DNA from: a virus
Taxonomy: Duplodnaviria > Heunggongvirae > Uroviricota > Caudoviricetes
Strand: one strand, 5' to 3'
Virus record (IMG/VR): IMGVR_UViG_2939127364_000002
DNA length: 42,479 nt
The position numbers and the translations under genes are program-made. Of this stretch, positions 1 to 41,471 are shown in pieces. Numbering within the stretch: the first letter of the stretch is position 1; the number at the start of each line of letters is the position of its first letter. The notes beneath the pieces were generated by a model, which had not been told where the DNA came from, did not search any database, and was given only the letters and a program-made list of their open reading frames with translations.

Positions 1-201
1 TTACCCATTGGCGCGGCTTAAGAGCTTATTTTTGAATTCACAATGGTCACGATATAACCATCTTGCTCGCCCGTGGATAACTTTGGCTTTTGGCAGGTCG
101 CCGGACTTAATCCGGTCGTAGATGAAGGTTTTACCGAAGCCAGTATCGGCCATGATGAATTTCAAATCAACCAGGGAATCAGGCTGTAGTTCGTGTTGCA
201 T
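1..201 (-). CDS. torI: Excisionase / recombination directionality factor, TorI-like (66 aa, winged-helix Xis/AlpA type)
   Basis: Complete 66-aa ORF MQHELQPDSLVDLKFIMADTGFGK...; recognised as TorI of the KplE1/CPS-53 prophage; GGAG 9 nt upstream of ATG at 199..201; its stop codon is bases 1..3 of the window. Confidence 0.8.
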   Translation of the reverse strand: MQHELQPDSLVDLKFIMADTGFGKTFIYDRIKSGDLPKAKVIHGRARWLYRDHCEFKNKLLSRANG

Positions 202-220
202 GAGTGCTATCTCCGAATAG

Positions 221-236
221 GGAATCGAACCTGCAA
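221..236. repeat. 16-bp exact copy (ggaatcgaacctgcaa) of the argW T-arm sequence; candidate att core copy
   Basis: Identical 16-mer at 41411..41426 inside the tRNA; flanks diverge immediately on both sides. Confidence 0.6.
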
Positions 237-244
237 ATCAGGTA

Positions 245-267
245 ATAAAAAACCGCCATCAGGCGGC
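245..267 (-). terminator. Rho-independent terminator at the end of the early-left operon
   Basis: Minus-strand hairpin ccgcc-(4 nt loop)-ggcgg followed by T-tract (A-run 245..252 on plus strand). Confidence 0.6.
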
Positions 268-426
268 TTGGTGTTCTTTCAGTTCTTCAATTCGAATATT
301 GGTTACGTCTGCATGTGCTATCTGCGCCCATAGCATCCAGTGGTTATAGCAGTCGTTGATGTTCTCTGCTTCGATAACTCTGTTGAATGGTTCTCCATTC
401 CATTCACCTGTGACTCGGAAGTGCAT
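259..426 (-). CDS. Hypothetical small protein (55 aa)
   Basis: ORF MHFRVTGEWNGEPFNRVIEAENINDCYNHWMLWAQ... not in the track (under 60 aa); GGAG 8 nt upstream of ATG; stop lies in the terminator loop. Confidence 0.3.
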   Translation of the reverse strand: MHFRVTGEWNGEPFNRVIEAENINDCYNHWMLWAQIAHADVTNIRIEELKEHQAA

Positions 427-526
427 TTATCATCTCCATAAAACAAAACTCGCCGTAGCGAGTTCAGATAAAAGAAATCCCCGCGAGTTCGAGGATTGTT
501 ATTCACCTTTGACGGCAAGTTGCAGG

Positions 527-1159
527 TTAGCCACGGTTCACCTCCTGCGGCGGTTCTGGTAGCGGCGTCCAGAACAAGGCGTTCCCTAACCACGATAAAG
601 TGCCGTCGCTCAACTCCACGTATTCCCCTTGCACCTGGCCTGCCATATACTCACCGTGCTTTGAATAAATTAAAATCCAATCATCTTGAGCGGGCATTCG
701 CGCACTACAGCTTATCCAAGCATCCGGAGTTACCGGATAGTTGCGCATTGCGACCTTTAATGCCTCATAGAAGCAACCTTTCAGATTGCTGAACTGACGC
801 CCATTTAGCGGGCCGTGTTCAGTCAGCATGTTGTGTAATTTCCATGCCGCGTCGTTTACTTCGCTGGATGGCAGGGAAGGCAACTTGTAAGTTTGGCTTA
901 CAGGTTCGGCTTCCAGTTCTGCTATGCGTTTTTTTGCTGCCTCCCGCTCAACACGCAGCTTCCCTACCGTTAGCGCAATATCCTCGTTCTCCTGGTCACG
1001 GCGTTTGATGTATTGCTGGTTCCTTTCCCGTTCATCCAGCAGCGCTAGCACAATCGATGGTGTTACCAGCTCATGGAAAAGGTCCGCGTCAAATCCCCAG
1101 TCGTCGTGCATTGCCTGCTCTGCCGCCTCACGCAGTGCCTGGTAATTAATTTCGCTCAC
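527..1159 (-). CDS. Phage protein with C-terminal DUF551-like domain
   Basis: C-terminus ...[18 protein letters not shown]...[10 protein letters not shown] matches the DUF551 signature; start placed at GTG 1159 with AGGAGG 6 nt upstream rather than track start 1180. Confidence 0.55.
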
Positions 1160-1323
1160 TGGTTGCCTCCTTTGCGCCACATCGCATTCAGATATTTGTT
1201 GTCATTAACAGAACCGAAACTATTTCTCTTAAGCAATTCCTCTCTCGATGGCATTGGCTTTACGCGTTGGCGAATAATCATTTCTGCCGGAAGAATGCCG
1301 GGATTGTATGCAAGTCCTCTCAT
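1159..1323 (-). CDS. Hypothetical small protein (54 aa)
   Basis: [34 protein letters not shown]... with AAGAGGAA RBS; its TGA overlaps the GTG start of the downstream gene (GTGA). Confidence 0.3.
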
Positions 1324-1339
1324 GGTAAATTCCTCTTTG

Positions 1340-1654
1340 TTAATTTATTCGTATGCCTGCTCTTTCTTCATCGAGTTTTTTTAGCTTGTATCGCATAGCT
1401 CTTACTGAATAAATTGAGCGGCAGGTTGCAATTGCTATTTCTTCTGCGGAGAACTTACCGAAAAGTGATACTTCGGCTCTTGTCCATCGTCTTCCACGAA
1501 GTCGGCTAACAATGTCAGCGCCAATCCTTGTTGCTTTCGCCATTACTGCTTTTTCAGTCCTTTCCAGTTTTTCAGCGATAACTTCAACTGGCATTGTCGC
1601 CGCTACTTCGCGCAAGAAATCGACTTCCCATTTCTCCCATGGAGTCTTTTTCAT
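1340..1654 (-). CDS. Hypothetical early protein (104 aa)
   Basis: Track ORF in the early-left gene string; no family recognised. Confidence 0.45.
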
Positions 1655-1665
1655 AGGCGATACCG

Positions 1666-2148
1666 TTATTTGATAAGAAGTGAAGGTTTCCCAACCTTGA
1701 GTTGAGCACCGGGGATATTTATTCCTGCTTTTAGTTGGTGTTTGATTGCCAGTTTGTCGGCTTTAATTGTCGTTTCAAACTCAACGTATTCAGGAGGAAG
1801 GGCGCTTGAGTCGATGATTTCTACAGTTTCTGACGGTTTGCGGATTGTTACCTGGTGAATACCTGCTCGAATCTTTTTCTTGCCAACCATTTCAAGCGAT
1901 GACGCTATATACGCCATAATGCTGTCAATCTTATTTTGAATTACTGCGGCTCTCTCATTTAGTGACTTTGCCTCTTCCTTGAGGCGTTCAGCATAACCAG
2001 ATTCATTTTTAATAATGGCGAGAAGTTGCTCTATTTTATCGGTAAATTCTCCTTCCATGCCTTCTATTGTGTCAGCAATCATCTCTGGCTCTAAATCTGA
2101 ATCCATCAATTTTGCGTATTCATTGGCTATTTCATATAGTTTGCTCAC
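1666..2148 (-). CDS. Recombination-associated protein, resembles Sipho_Gp157 family
   Basis: N-terminus VSKLYEIANEYAKLMD... and position immediately downstream of RecT; start moved to GTG 2148 with GGAGG 6 nt upstream. Confidence 0.45.
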   Translation of the reverse strand: MSKLYEIANEYAKLMDSDLEPEMIADTIEGMEGEFTDKIEQLLAIIKNESGYAERLKEEAKSLNERAAVIQNKIDSIMAYIASSLEMVGKKKIRAGIHQVTIRKPSETVEIIDSSALPPEYVEFETTIKADKLAIKHQLKAGINIPGAQLKVGKPSLLIK

Positions 2149-3043
2149 TGGCAACCTCCAGTTTCGCTTTGCATTCTATGTAAATGGCTTGTACGTTCTG
2201 CTGCAATTTCATTCCAGACGTCAGGCGATATGCTTCTGCAAAATATCGCTTCAAATCATCCATGTTTTCTGCCTGAGCCATTTCATCGCAAAGAAGTTGT
2301 ACTTTATCCATTATTTCCTGCTGGCGTTTCCGTTCATCTTCGCGGATATCTTCCTCTGATTTGTGCGGCATAACTGGTTCAGTCCACACACCTTCTTCTT
2401 CGTTTAGTACGTGAATAGCACTATCAAGACGTGATGCCTTAGGCCAATACTTGCTTGCACGCTTTACGACCGTCTTTCGCGCCATCTCATTCCAGTGATT
2501 TACCCATGGTCCTTTATCGCTGAATGCTGCCTTGCTTGTTTTCCTTACAGCCTCAATTTCAGCCAGACTCATCTCTTCCGTTAGATAATCACCTGCTGGC
2601 ATCTTAACTGTGCAGTAAACGCCAACGATATCACCACGATCACCGAAGGCGTTGTATTTATGGGTTGGTGCTTTATCAAGCCCGTTTGACTCATAGGTAT
2701 CGTTAGCATGAACAAGTTTTGCCTGACCCCATGAGATAACACCAGACTCCATTGCAATATGGAGCAATCCCATATAACTGATATCAAGGCACACCATGCC
2801 GTCGCGCGGAACCAGATAAGCCAGTTTGCTAGCTGGGTTTAAGGTGATGCCGATCGCCGCAACATTGATGATGGCGTTCTGTGCGCTGGTTGGATTTGCC
2901 AGTGCTGTTTTAGCCAGGTAATCGTTTTTCTGGAAATACTGAATTGCAAACTGGCTTTCCTTAGCCCATGTCACCGTCTGTTCAGTCAATGCTCCGCAGA
3001 ATAACTGCTCCTGCTGTTTAACGAATTCAACGATATTGCTCAT
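2132..3043 (-). CDS. recT: RecT-family single-strand annealing recombinase
   Basis: 303-aa ORF of typical RecT size and sequence character; GGAGAA RBS; sits in the recombination slot of the early-left operon. Confidence 0.7.
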   Translation of the reverse strand: MSNIVEFVKQQEQLFCGALTEQTVTWAKESQFAIQYFQKNDYLAKTALANPTSAQNAIINVAAIGITLNPASKLAYLVPRDGMVCLDISYMGLLHIAMESGVISWGQAKLVHANDTYESNGLDKAPTHKYNAFGDRGDIVGVYCTVKMPAGDYLTEEMSLAEIEAVRKTSKAAFSDKGPWVNHWNEMARKTVVKRASKYWPKASRLDSAIHVLNEEEGVWTEPVMPHKSEEDIREDERKRQQEIMDKVQLLCDEMAQAENMDDLKRYFAEAYRLTSGMKLQQNVQAIYIECKAKLEVASEQTI

Positions 3044-4411: not shown

Positions 4412-4774
4412 TTACCTGGCTGTCAGTTGTTTTGATTTCCGGTATCCTGCCGCGTAAATGGCTACGTTTGGAAGACATACACCAGTTTCTGGTTGCTTAT
4501 GTCCAAACTCATTCGCGTACACAATGGCTGCTCTCTCCAGATTGCGTCTGTATTCTTTCTGTTGCCAGATCACGTCCTGTGCCATGAACTTAATTGGCTT
4601 AGCGTCTTCTATGCGCTCAGGCGTTTCGTGAGTACCTTTAGCCTGAATCTGCGCTCTGCTTAGAGTAGGGCGGTGTAATACTTCTGAGCTTGCCGTAATC
4701 TCATTCTGGAGCGCTGCACGACGCTCACGACGACGACCTGATGCTGAGCCATTGAAAGCTGTTCTGCGTGTCAT
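4412..4774 (-). CDS. N: N-like transcription antiterminator
   Basis: Arginine-rich N-terminus ...GRRRERRAALQ... resembles the lambda N arginine-rich motif; first gene left of the oL region; AGGAGG 7 nt upstream of ATG. Confidence 0.65.
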   Translation of the reverse strand: MTRRTAFNGSASGRRRERRAALQNEITASSEVLHRPTLSRAQIQAKGTHETPERIEDAKPIKFMAQDVIWQQKEYRRNLERAAIVYANEFGHKQPETGVCLPNVAIYAAGYRKSKQLTAR

Positions 4775-18059: not shown

Positions 18060-18554
18060 ATGGCTGGAACGGCGGGGCGTTCCGGGCGTCGCCCCAAGCC
18101 AACGGCGCGCAAGGCGCTGGCCGGAAACCCCGGCAAGCGAGCCCTGAACAAAGATGAACCTGTTTTTACGCCCATCAAAGGTGTTGAGCCACCGGAGTGG
18201 TTCGCTGAAGAAGATCTCCCTCTCGCTACAATCATGTGGCAACTGACAACTAAAGAACTCTGCGGTCAGGGCCTGCTGTGCGTGACTGACCTCGCGGTGC
18301 TTGAGCGGTGGTGCGTGGCCTATGAGTTCTGGCGACGTGCCGTGAAAAATATTGCCAGACAGGGCAACACCATCACCGGTGCAATGGGCGGCATGGTCAA
18401 AAATCCGGAGCTGACCGCCAAGAAAGAACAGGAGTCCGAGATGAGCAGCACGGGGGCAATGCTCGGACTCGACCCCAGCAGCCGCCAGCGTCTGATTGGC
18501 CTGGCGGGGAAGAAGAAAGCCACTAACCCGTTTCTGAAAATCATCGAATCATGA
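18060..18554 (+). CDS. Terminase small subunit (P27-like)
   Basis: [34 protein letters not shown]... typical P27-family N-terminus; AGGAG RBS; ATGA overlap with the large subunit. Confidence 0.8.
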
Positions 18555-40077: not shown

Positions 40078-41235
40078 CTATGACACCTTCTCATCAAGCC
40101 AATCCGCCCACCACTGCATCATTTCTCTGCGCTTATCGAGATACTGAGCATGGTTGTAAATTCCACGTACAGATCCGCCGTTGGCATGTGCCAGTTGCAC
40201 TTCAATGGCGTCGGCAGGCCATTCGTGCTCGTTCATAATCGTGCTGAATTCATGCCTGAATCCGTGACCGCTTTCCAGACCTTCATAGCCGATTTGTTTG
40301 ATCACAAGCAATACCGCGTTCTCGCAGATTGGCTTCTTCTTATCGTTGCGCCCGGCAAAAACAAACTCTGAGACTGGTTTGGTGATTGAGCTTAGCGTAG
40401 TGAGAAGTTCAACCACCTGGTCTGACATCGGGACCACATGAATTTTGCGTCCCTTCATCACACTGGCGTCGATGGTGATAATCCTGTTTTCAAAATCGAC
40501 GTTCTTCCATAGCATGGAACGAAGCTCTTTCGTTCTTAGGGCTGTATAACGTAAAACTTTTGTCGCAATGAGCGATACGATACTTCCTGAAAATGTTGCC
40601 AGTGCTTTGTTGAATGCAGGGATCTGGTCTGCTGGAAGGAACGGGAAGTTCTTCTTGCGGTATCCCTTCATGGCGTCAGCAAGGTCAGGTGCCGGGTTAT
40701 ATTTAGCCCTACCAGTGACAATAGCGTAACGGAAAACCTCGCCGCATCTTCTGCGGGCTTTGTTGGCTCGCTCCATTGCACCGCGATCTTCAAATCTGCG
40801 GATTACTTCCAGCAGTTGCATCGGCTCAATATCCTGAATTTCAAGGCCGCCGATGATGGGTAAAATGTCGTCATCAAACATTTTTGCAAGTTCATTTGCA
40901 TAGCCTACTGACCAGACTTGCTTCTTGTGCTCGTACCATTCCTTGTAAATGGCGCTAAAGGAATTGTTGTTAGACGAAGTCTTTTTCGCTTTTACCGGAT
41001 CGATACCAACCGAGATGTCTTTCCTCGCGGTCCATGCTTTATCCCTTGCCTCCTGCAAAGTCATAAGCGGATATTTTCCGACGGTCAGGATTTTCTCCTT
41101 ACCGTCAATCTTGTAGCGAAGCTGCCATACCTTTTTCCCGGATACAGGAACATAAAGGTACAGGCCATTACCATCGAGAAGGCGGTATGGTTTTTCTTTC
41201 GGCTTTGCTGCTTCAATCTGCTTAACGGTGAGCAT
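40078..41235 (-). CDS. intS: Tyrosine integrase, IntS-like
   Basis: MLTVKQIEAAKPKEKPYRLLDGNGLYLYV... recognised as the CPS-53/KplE1 integrase; start placed at ATG 41235 rather than track start 41271; adjacent to argW. Confidence 0.9.
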   Translation of the reverse strand: MLTVKQIEAAKPKEKPYRLLDGNGLYLYVPVSGKKVWQLRYKIDGKEKILTVGKYPLMTLQEARDKAWTARKDISVGIDPVKAKKTSSNNNSFSAIYKEWYEHKKQVWSVGYANELAKMFDDDILPIIGGLEIQDIEPMQLLEVIRRFEDRGAMERANKARRRCGEVFRYAIVTGRAKYNPAPDLADAMKGYRKKNFPFLPADQIPAFNKALATFSGSIVSLIATKVLRYTALRTKELRSMLWKNVDFENRIITIDASVMKGRKIHVVPMSDQVVELLTTLSSITKPVSEFVFAGRNDKKKPICENAVLLVIKQIGYEGLESGHGFRHEFSTIMNEHEWPADAIEVQLAHANGGSVRGIYNHAQYLDKRREMMQWWADWLDEKVS

Positions 41236-41281
41236 GGGTAAAAATCCGGTGGGTAAAATTATTTTATCCACTTTTTACCCG
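41236..41281. promoter_or_regulatory. Cluster of GGGTAAAA / TTTTACCC 8-mers upstream of intS (candidate recombination-protein binding sites)
   Basis: GGGTAAAA at 41236..41243 and 41251..41258, inverted TTTTACCC at 41273..41280. Confidence 0.35.
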
Positions 41282-41396
41282 TCATGGAGTGCGGCTGTCA
41301 ACGATCTGACGCGAACCATGACGAACCGTGAATATACGGAAGGCTTGATATTCAGGGGATTTTGCGGACTGGTACGGATGGGAGCGAACTGATAAA

Positions 41397-41471
41397 TGGT
41401 GTCCCCTGCAGGAATCGAACCTGCAATTAGCCCTTAGGAGGGGCTCGTTATATCCATTTAACTAAGAGGAC
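41397..41471 (-). tRNA. argW: tRNA-Arg (anticodon CCU)
   Basis: 75-nt cloverleaf GTCCTCTTAGTTAAATGGATATAACGAGCCCCTCCTAAGGGCTAATTGCAGGTTCGATTCCTGCAGGGGACACCA with anticodon CCT and encoded CCA. Confidence 0.9.
41411..41426. repeat. att core copy within the argW T-arm
   Basis: Exact 16-bp match to 221..236. Confidence 0.6.

Follow-up and report, generated by a model that had tools for sequence, protein, structure and literature searches.

Whether a prophage can leave its own excisionase gene behind in the chromosome is the question raised by this locus. The window, that is, the whole stretch of 42,479 nucleotides (nt) of IMG/VR record IMGVR_UViG_2939127364_000002, is on the strength of its sequence a lambdoid prophage of about 41.5 kb from Escherichia coli CP53, residing in the tRNA gene argW via an attachment (att) module of the KplE1/HK620/Sf6 type. 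An earlier note on this DNA had claimed that the 16-mer GGAATCGAACCTGCAA, found both in front of torI, the gene of the recombination directionality factor (RDF, or excisionase), and within argW, bounds the prophage, so that torI would lie outside it and be left behind on excision. The analysis reported here places the boundary at another 16-mer, ATGGTGTCCCCTGCAG, with torI inside the prophage, and finds in the left copy of GGAATCGAACCTGCAA a short conserved element of the torI leader for which a role in RDF expression is proposed. Taken as a whole, this explanation is held with strong confidence.

The repeat itself was as described. A search of the window returned GGAATCGAACCTGCAA exactly twice, both times on the plus strand, at 221..236 and 41411..41426, with no third copy in the window when up to 2 mismatches were allowed; 0.05 copies would be expected by chance, and two were reached in 0 of 100 shuffles. 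ARAGORN located tRNA-Arg(CCU), argW, at 41397..41471 on the minus strand, and the right-hand copy is therefore the argW T-arm, reaching from the end of the variable loop through the 5' T-stem and T-loop into the 3' T-stem by two bases. The open reading frame (ORF) at 1..201 (minus strand) had been named torI correctly: its 66-residue product is identical to TorI of K-12 as well as to HkaC of HK620 and gp18 of Sf6, matches phrog_66 (excisionase), and is annotated as torI in the CP53 record. Nor do the bases next to 221 run on into a tRNA 3' tail, as the earlier note had observed.

The first 1.5 kb of the window is 100% identical to E. coli CP53 (NZ_CP033096.1), in whose record dsdC lies directly to the left of torI. 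Examination of the sequence left of position 1, where a further copy of the argW 3' region had been thought worth seeking, located ATGGTGTCCCCTGCAG 73 nt past the torI stop codon, at 2912..2927 of the CP53 locus (L001), equivalent to window positions -88..-73. The sole other copy, at 41396..41411, consists of the 3' acceptor end of argW plus one base and adjoins GGAATCGAACCTGCAA, the two overlapping by one base. Read on the tRNA strand it is CTGCAGGGGACACCAT, the published duplicated core of KplE1, which is common to HK620, Sf6 and Kapi1 (PMC2951348, PMC8787464). The apparent paradox of an excisionase outside its prophage arises because the window, whose edge coincides with the torI stop codon, ends 73 nt short of the attR core, and the reading of GGAATCGAACCTGCAA as a prophage boundary is an artefact of that edge. 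The earlier note had also entertained an attR beyond the window edge with 221..236 as an internal core-type site; this was essentially right, except that the tRNA match found there is the adjacent 16 nt and not a longer one.

Junctions were searched for in 5,426 complete E. coli genomes. When the dsdC flank was joined to the argW/yfdC flank at the outer repeat, the rebuilt empty attB (416 nt) was found contiguously, at 100% identity and full coverage, in 912 genomes, annotated in the order dsdC, tRNA-Arg, yfdC; the comparison with an uninterrupted argW locus is thereby provided. The junction expected from the inner repeat, torI fused to the 5' part of argW, had no match among the 5,426. The first 1.5 kb of the window, comprising torI and the region upstream of it, was matched in 3,587 of these genomes, and the occupancy counts confirm that argW-dsdC is a heavily used integration hotspot.

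In free phages (HF4s, N7, Kapi1, Sf6, HK620 and others) homology with the CP53 chromosome breaks off at the very base where the outer core starts (query position 63), and in HK620, Sf6 and others torI, 72-73 nt, the core, the P' arm and int form one contiguous run. Phages of the HK620/Sf6/Kapi1 type are known to carry attP between int and xis, the two genes standing at opposite ends of the prophage (PMC2951348, PMC8787464). Excision in vitro uses an attR of 135 bp whose inner primer corresponds to window positions 5..24 (PMC3509656); as this attR ends at about position 24, 221..236 is dispensable for excision in vitro. From the empty-site counts, the free-phage layout and the in vitro attR it follows that torI lies inside the prophage and is packaged with the phage. 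No evidence counting against the outer-core boundary was found.

The reading in which 221..236 and 41411..41426 are the att cores and excision leaves torI as a host-resident RDF draws on an exact 16-nt direct repeat flanking nearly the whole prophage. Its product, however, would be an argW cut after the T-loop and fused to the torI leader, a truncated tRNA gene seen in no genome against the 912 with an outer-core attB; the published core is the adjoining 16-mer, torI is carried by the free phages HK620, Sf6 and Kapi1, and in other genera the stretch shares just 12-13 of its 16 nt with the tRNA. Identity between the two copies also ends just before TGCAGGG, the likely overlap region, so that the overlap would be left out. 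We accord this reading practically no probability.

Excision from core to core would rejoin torI, attP and intS and restore dsdC-argW-yfdC. The resulting attB would read ...ACACAAGG-ATGGTGTCCCCTGCAG-GAATCGAACC... and the attP torI-...GATGT-CTGCAGGGGACACCAT-TTATCAGTTCGC...-intS. Because attP lies between torI and intS in the phage, intS adjoins argW after integration and torI comes to stand at the far end. The core is duplicated at both ends, the tRNA is intact and dsdC-argW-yfdC can be restored; the integrase has the same orientation as the adjoining tRNA, with the RDF at the opposite end. Judged by these features, the CP53 prophage is an ordinary one of the KplE1/HK620 type. Occupied sites, empty sites and free phages form the comparative evidence that IntS, TorI and IHF would catalyse excision and integration here.

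The leader element, CAGGTTCGATTCCC, makes up the deeply conserved part of the left copy of GGAATCGAACCTGCAA and is set in the torI leader between a rho-independent terminator on one side and the ribosome-binding site on the other. TorI homologues were sampled from contigs at one genome per species and from IMG/VR. On the minus strand, (C)AGGTTCGATTYCC stands upstream of the RDF gene in E. coli/Shigella, Citrobacter-like, Serratia, Pantoea, Edwardsiella and Erwinia lineages, and the element is present in 128 of 152 TorI-type loci, corresponding to 23 of 38 distinct proteins. All 17 lineage representatives share its core GTTCGATT without change, while the upstream flank and the 5 nt that separate the element from the Shine-Dalgarno (SD) sequence vary freely; in 11 of them GGAG follows the G of GTTCGATT at a distance of 16 nt. 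Lineages that keep the invariant core have RDF proteins of only 35-75% identity and randomised adjoining noncoding bases. The TTGC completing GGAATCGAACCTGCAA is restricted to the E. coli group. The element also occurs in most leaders of the g341c type, which belong to a second RDF family with the same argW core; modules of this type have an integrase of 61% identity and arm repeats GGGCATAA, yet their argW core is unchanged. A scan of viral contigs for GTTCGATTYCC-N5-GGAGAT led back to the same genes, an xis of these types lying directly downstream in 116 of 120 cases among the matches listed. Within the window GTTCGATTYC occurs in the tRNA and the torI leader only, with 0.14 copies expected.

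Variants of the leader were found in both directions. Erwinia phages resembling Midgardsormr38 carry AGGTTCGATTCCC twice in tandem with a period of 16 (L005 2300..2345, minus strand; L128, L129, L131) and L125 carries a tandem duplication of GTTCGATTCCCgcGTTCGATTACC with a period of 13, while the related contig L132 has a single copy. The element has been lost precisely more than once (L016 from Dryocola, L230, L237, L238 and L242), including from leaders of the g341c type; the sequence of these deletion variants is the terminator and then ...gcctg joined to GAGATAatgatATG or to gaggaaagcATG, with the SD directly behind the terminator. The isolated phages Chronis, RCIP0114 and Eho49 have no element and keep the same core and arms. 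Singleton variants of the element exist within E. coli, and a change of GTTCGAT to GTTAGA(T/C/G) has arisen independently in E. coli, Citrobacter-like, Edwardsiella-like and Salmonella-like leaders (L068, L139, L116, L189, L193). Near-identical leaders (terminator and gcctggcttccAGGTTCGATTTCCaaaccGGAGATGaaaccc, 70 nt upstream of xis) precede unrelated xis families in L213/L214 and in L140/L146, the two proteins beginning MQHQLQPD... and MRELRDDS..., and a mosaic joint must therefore lie at the start codon. The natural duplication and deletion variants could serve as ready controls, and CAAGCTAA would be a substitute for the wild-type core GTTCGATT.

By these comparisons GTTCGATTYCC is shown to be under purifying selection in the leaders of two RDF families, all of them in argW-targeting modules. 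The element is dispensable, since viable phages and many prophages do without it. Its distribution, conservation and variants, together with the reverse scan, thus describe an element that is under selection, can be dispensed with and is specific to the RDF leader of modules that target argW. No description of it was found in the searchable literature.

The terminator that the earlier note had placed at 245..267 is a hairpin at 269..250 followed by a T-run on the minus strand. Its 8-bp stem with 5 G-C pairs, 4-nt loop and following TTTATT mark it as a rho-independent terminator, and it is the sole stable structure in the RNA fold of the region, appearing in both the minimum free energy and the centroid folds. 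Many lineages have terminators with unrelated stems at the same place upstream of the leader. A consensus scan of positions 1..1400 yielded no sigma-70-like promoter. We infer that torI has no promoter of its own here and is probably expressed by read-through of the terminator from the early-left operon; antiterminated read-through is the most economical reading. The earlier note's suggestion of read-through, plausibly N-dependent, is consistent with the terminator and with the N-like gene; its alternative, a promoter overlapping the core, has a counterpart in predicted promoter annotations over the element in the HK620 and Sf6 records. In 2010 PtorI was drawn and termed 'non-characterized', and excision control was argued to rest on RDF expression. 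The orf55-like gene is itself closely preceded by two further terminator-like hairpins (465..446 and 497..476, minus strand), giving three minus-strand terminators within 250 nt before torI; a terminator scan of 1..1400 on both strands returned 5 sites where 1.4 were expected. Later work is said to have put torI silencing down to transcription termination, and control of torI by Rho is reported in work cited in a review.

What the leader element does can be approached from the known regulation of the module. IntS and TorI have been reported to repress PintS, the intS promoter, at attL, and the published TorI sites are 8-mers built on GTTCG, GATCG or GTCCG. The element is probably a dispensable protein-binding element, and with no conserved RNA structure to be found (see below) a DNA site is likelier than an RNA element. 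The integrase seems the most likely binder, because the element copies the B-side half-site of attB, TTCGATTCC, next to the likely overlap TGCAGGG; TorI may bind also or instead. In attP, TGCAGGG is the 7 nt between inverted GATGTC and GACACC, a position that the half-sites point to indirectly. The attP C half-sites read TTCGATGT(A/C) before TGCAGGG where the tRNA has TTCGATTCC before TGCAGGG, or more fully (T)TCGATGT(A/C), TGCAGGG, GACACC in attP and TTCGATTCC, TGCAGGG, GACACC in the tRNA. This arrangement suggests a 7-nt overlap between inverted core-type half-sites, in which 41411..41426 would be the B-side core-type half-site of attB; it likewise suggests that the leader element is an exact copy of that half-site, ending at the boundary between B and the overlap. 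The element shares TTCGAT with many attP C sites, and has no partner half-site or overlap beside it. The alternation of C and A (TTCGAT/TTAGAT) occurs among the attP C sites, where it separates TTCGATGT from TTAGATGT, and equally among the element variants.

By analogy with PintS repression, the element could be an operator at which a recombination protein damps RDF read-through, a suggestion to which we give distinctly less than even weight. Such a protein would bind the leader element as a DNA site and damp RDF expression as IntS and TorI do at the intS promoter; integrase bound there may loop out torI by bridging to the P-arm sites at its 3' end. That the element is a deliberate copy of the T-loop half-site of attB, through which the integrase and/or the RDF gates RDF read-through, is put forward tentatively, and several observations weigh against it. 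Compared with the TorI 8-mer R-G-(T/A)-(T/C)-C-G-Y-N, the element reads GGTTCGAT, matching at positions 1-6 and having A at position 7; the base after GTTCG is always A in the element and is C or T in 29 TorI-type sites of six lineages, and a TorI site does not account for the conserved ATTYCC. If integrase is the binder, the element follows the tRNA (B) version and not the apparently preferred attP half-site consensus GATGT, and core-type sites alone usually bind integrase weakly. The tandem copies, spaced 16 or 13 nt, show no helical phasing, and many functional-looking modules lack the element. All of the sampled modules, of the TorI type and of the g341c type alike, target argW, and more distant integrases (at most 39% identity) belong to other architectures.

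The tRNA identity of the element could instead be a neutral relic, without present function, of an ancestral attP that included 31 nt or more from the 3' region of argW (T-arm and acceptor) and was later split by torI and the P arm. The two 16-mers do abut in the tRNA with their 1-nt overlap, the phage keeps them in the same order and orientation 293 bp apart, removal of what separates them would restore a contiguous tRNA 3' segment, and loss of the element leaves the module intact. A neutral relic would have decayed, however, and the core has stayed invariant across the diverged RDF proteins and randomised flanks and has even been duplicated in some lineages; the segment between the two pieces holds the functional P arm, so that no simple insertion can be supposed. 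We regard the relic as unlikely, and a tRNA origin, which is possible, would be compatible with a present function. The verdict depends on none of the origin scenarios (nested or tandem integration, integration at a secondary site followed by aberrant excision, torI inserted into a tRNA copy of 31 nt). A joint kept for recombination between phage modules is a further reading, suggested by the annotation bsq2 ('boundary sequence') over torI and its leader in the Sf6 record, by the position of the element at the 5' edge of the shared module and by the identical leaders before two unrelated xis families. Yet homologous exchange would have very little length to work with in 11-13 nt; selection in favour of recombination yet to come is weak and leaves the base-by-base invariance unexplained; and joints also flank the element, at the ATG and at about 244..250; of the readings considered for the element it appears to us the most improbable.

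A part in a promoter of torI, CII-dependent and of the 'pI' type or otherwise, is indicated by the HK620 record, where a 'phage integration' promoter (1664..1702) and a CII site (1689..1701) lie over the element, by 'pI' (18404..18431) over the element in the Sf6 record, and by the drawing of PtorI as a non-characterised promoter in 2010. These annotations are predictions only. The lambda CII-site consensus is TTGC-N6-TTGC, from which TTGC-N5-TTGC in HK620 and TTAC-N5-TTGC in the window depart in spacing; the CII-like part is not conserved outside the E. coli group, a sigma-70-like hexamer pair and a plausible -10 among the conserved bases are lacking, and Xis would be made when Int alone is wanted. 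A CII-dependent pI-type promoter was rejected on these grounds, and promoter function in general is very unlikely. An RNA element that would depress torI translation or guide processing of the read-through transcript, be it an anti-SD (UUCC with GGAG) or a hairpin resembling a T-arm, has an equally small chance in our estimate. The distance to the SD is fixed, UUCC is able to pair with GGAG, and leaders of the Edwardsiella type can form a 5-bp T-arm-like stem. Against this, RNAalifold found 0 conserved pairs in 12 lineages, the single-sequence fold held the terminator only (z = -0.8), Rfam returned sub-threshold noise only (STnc130, E = 0.91; rimP, E = 0.61), and the most conserved bases, GTTCGATT, are not those that would pair. 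The match to STnc130, a Salmonella small RNA, covers L001 3151..3278 on the plus strand (window 151..278), antisense to the 5' end of torI, the element and the terminator; at 22.6 bits versus a gathering score of 55 it is probably noise.

Three finer readings of the leader were tried and dropped. A second, TorI-like RTYCG element at a fixed offset abutting the SD (ATTCG in E. coli; GTCCG in Edwardsiella, L130 and L126; GTTCG in P. stewartii) is hard to separate from the SD context CGGAG and is missing from other lineages. A full pseudo-core, GATTCC plus 7 nt plus GAGATA, is spaced as in attB in some lineages, but its GAGATA serves as the SD and agrees with GACACC in no more than 3 of 6 bases. 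A pairing between GGUUCG and the CGAAC of torI codons 4-5 exists in E. coli only and is not conserved.

The features of the window are collected in Table 1.

Table 1. Coordinates and strands of the features discussed, in window positions.
Feature	Position	Strand	Remarks
torI, RDF (excisionase)	1..201	-	last prophage gene; transcribed towards attR
First P-arm IntS arm-type repeat GGGTAAAA, part within the window	1..6	-	overlaps torI stop codon
torI ribosome-binding site GGAGATA	208..214	-	follows leader element
RDF-leader element CAGGTTCGATTCCC	220..233	-	invariant core GTTCGATT at 223..230; deeply conserved part of GGAATCGAACCTGCAA
Left GGAATCGAACCTGCAA copy	221..236	+	no att core; extra TTGC (- strand, 233..236) specific to E. 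coli lineage
Rho-independent terminator	240..269	-	stem 269..250, T-run 249..240; ends orf55-like gene, upstream of torI leader
lambda orf55-like gene	259..426	-	phrog_676
N-like antiterminator	4412..4774	-	phrog_271, E = 1.3e-38; upstream of torI, same strand
intS-type integrase	40078..41235	-	ATG at 41235; adjoins argW, prophage end opposite torI
P' arm IntS arm-type repeats	41236..41280	-	overlap intS promoter; site type per PMC2951348
Inverted arm repeats TTTTACCC	41251..41258 and 41236..41243	listed under -	P' arm
Arm repeat GGATAAAA	41262..41269	-	P' arm
Arm repeat GGGTAAAA	41273..41280	-	P' arm
Five TorI-type 8-mers	41300..41390	-	attL; motifs and spacing match published I1-I5
TorI-type 8-mer AGATCGTT	41300..41307	-	attL; abuts -35 TTGACA of intS promoter
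TorI-type 8-mer GGTTCGCG	41310..41317	-	attL
TorI-type 8-mer GGTTCGTC	41320..41327	-	attL
TorI-type 8-mer AGTCCGCA	41363..41370	-	attL
TorI-type 8-mer AGTTCGCT	41383..41390	-	attL
attL copy of true att core ATGGTGTCCCCTGCAG (CTGCAGGGGACACCAT on tRNA strand)	41396..41411	+	partner at L001 2912..2927
argW, tRNA-Arg(CCU)	41397..41471	-	ARAGORN; regenerated by core carried on phage
Right GGAATCGAACCTGCAA copy	41411..41426	+	argW T-arm; overlaps true core by 1 nt

The integrase is 98-99% identical to Int of HK620, Sf6 and CUS-3 and matches phrog_1. The predicted TorI-type 8-mers (GTTCG/GTCCG/GATCG) of attL carry the published spacers of 12 nt and 2 nt. IntS arm-type sites contain TAAA (PMC2951348); beyond the window edge come the remainder of the P arm and the attR core (-88..-73), where L001 2912..3010 reads ...ATGGTGTCCCCTGCAG-N-...tattttacccgctattttaccc. 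An annotated 46-residue ORF, gene 17 of Sf6 (L003 1457..1597) and hkaB of HK620 (L004 1324..1464), runs across the attP core as far as an overlap with the torI stop; it would be cut in two by integration and is probably no real gene. Downstream of xis in L011, L013, L147, L152, L214 and L241, the match to the 3' end of argW goes no further than TGCAGGGGACA and the adjoining host sequence does not resemble a tRNA, which may reflect a variant or secondary site or another host tRNA end. In Erwinia tracheiphila (L029 2501..2640) the torI homologue ends after about 37 residues and is fused almost directly to the att core (…gccttattcgatgtaTGCAGGGGACACCAT); this looks like a deletion remnant of the module.

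From about window position 244-247 the terminator and the orf55-like gene are 96-98% identical to lambda, HK022 and 434, and this lambdoid segment meets the recombination module in a mosaic joint at about 244..250. At the same joint the KplE1 element of K-12 (L002 1150..1310) has unrelated sequence (yfdT/ypdJ) and a decayed hairpin.

Among known systems KplE1 (CPS-53) of E. coli K-12 is close, with the same 16-nt core, an identical TorI, the same torI leader including the 16-mer, the same P arm, five TorI-type sites, attL arm-type repeats and the same dsdC/yfdC site (PMC2951348, PMC3509656). It differs in being a 10-kb defective remnant with no repressor or lysis genes and in the segment upstream of its leader, where the terminator hairpin has decayed; the CP53 element, by comparison, is a lambdoid prophage of full length that has tail genes as well as N-, CI-, Cro- and Q-like genes. 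In HK620, Sf6, Kapi1 and CUS-3 the contiguous run from torI to int is 96-98% identical, and the terminator and leader element upstream of torI are identical. These phages are P22-like podoviruses, whereas the prophage body of CP53 is lambda-like with long-tail genes, and their records label the leader a predicted pI promoter or a boundary sequence, not a T-arm copy. The Salmonella P22-like phage g341c and its relatives share the argW core, the xis-attP-int layout and a GTTCGATTCCC-N5-GGAGATA leader; they differ in the integrase, in an Xis of another sequence family and in having the arm repeats GGGCATAA in place of GGGTAAAA.

Control of int and xis in lambda works through PL with N antitermination, pI and sib retroregulation. 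The likeness to lambda lies in the RDF gene being distal in the early-left operon, behind terminators and with an N-like gene upstream, and in RDF supply setting directionality. Lambda, however, has xis next to int and transcribes the two together, with attP on the far side of int. In the argW module attP separates the two genes; int is transcribed from an autoregulated promoter of its own within attL and is out of reach of the PL transcript of the prophage (PMC2951348). Secondary or pseudo att sites and tRNA relics likewise place a short, directly oriented stretch of tRNA identity close to one end of a prophage. The leader element, unlike pseudo att sites, does not include the likely overlap TGCAGGG, and recombination at it was seen in no genome; unlike tRNA relics, it is a conserved part of the phage and no decaying host scar.

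The architecture of this prophage was already known from the well-studied KplE1/HK620/Sf6 module. What appears to be new is a short, strongly conserved element, identical to a tRNA T-loop, in the RDF leader of two RDF families and in many genera of Enterobacterales. It touches a gap in the published account, in which excision control rests on RDF expression and PtorI is uncharacterised. The conserved T-loop-like leader element is a modest lead; were it to bind IntS or TorI, it would offer a simple handle on how such prophages silence their RDF, and the proposed gating, if true, would constitute a second feedback loop on directionality in widespread prophages whose int and xis genes are split by attP.

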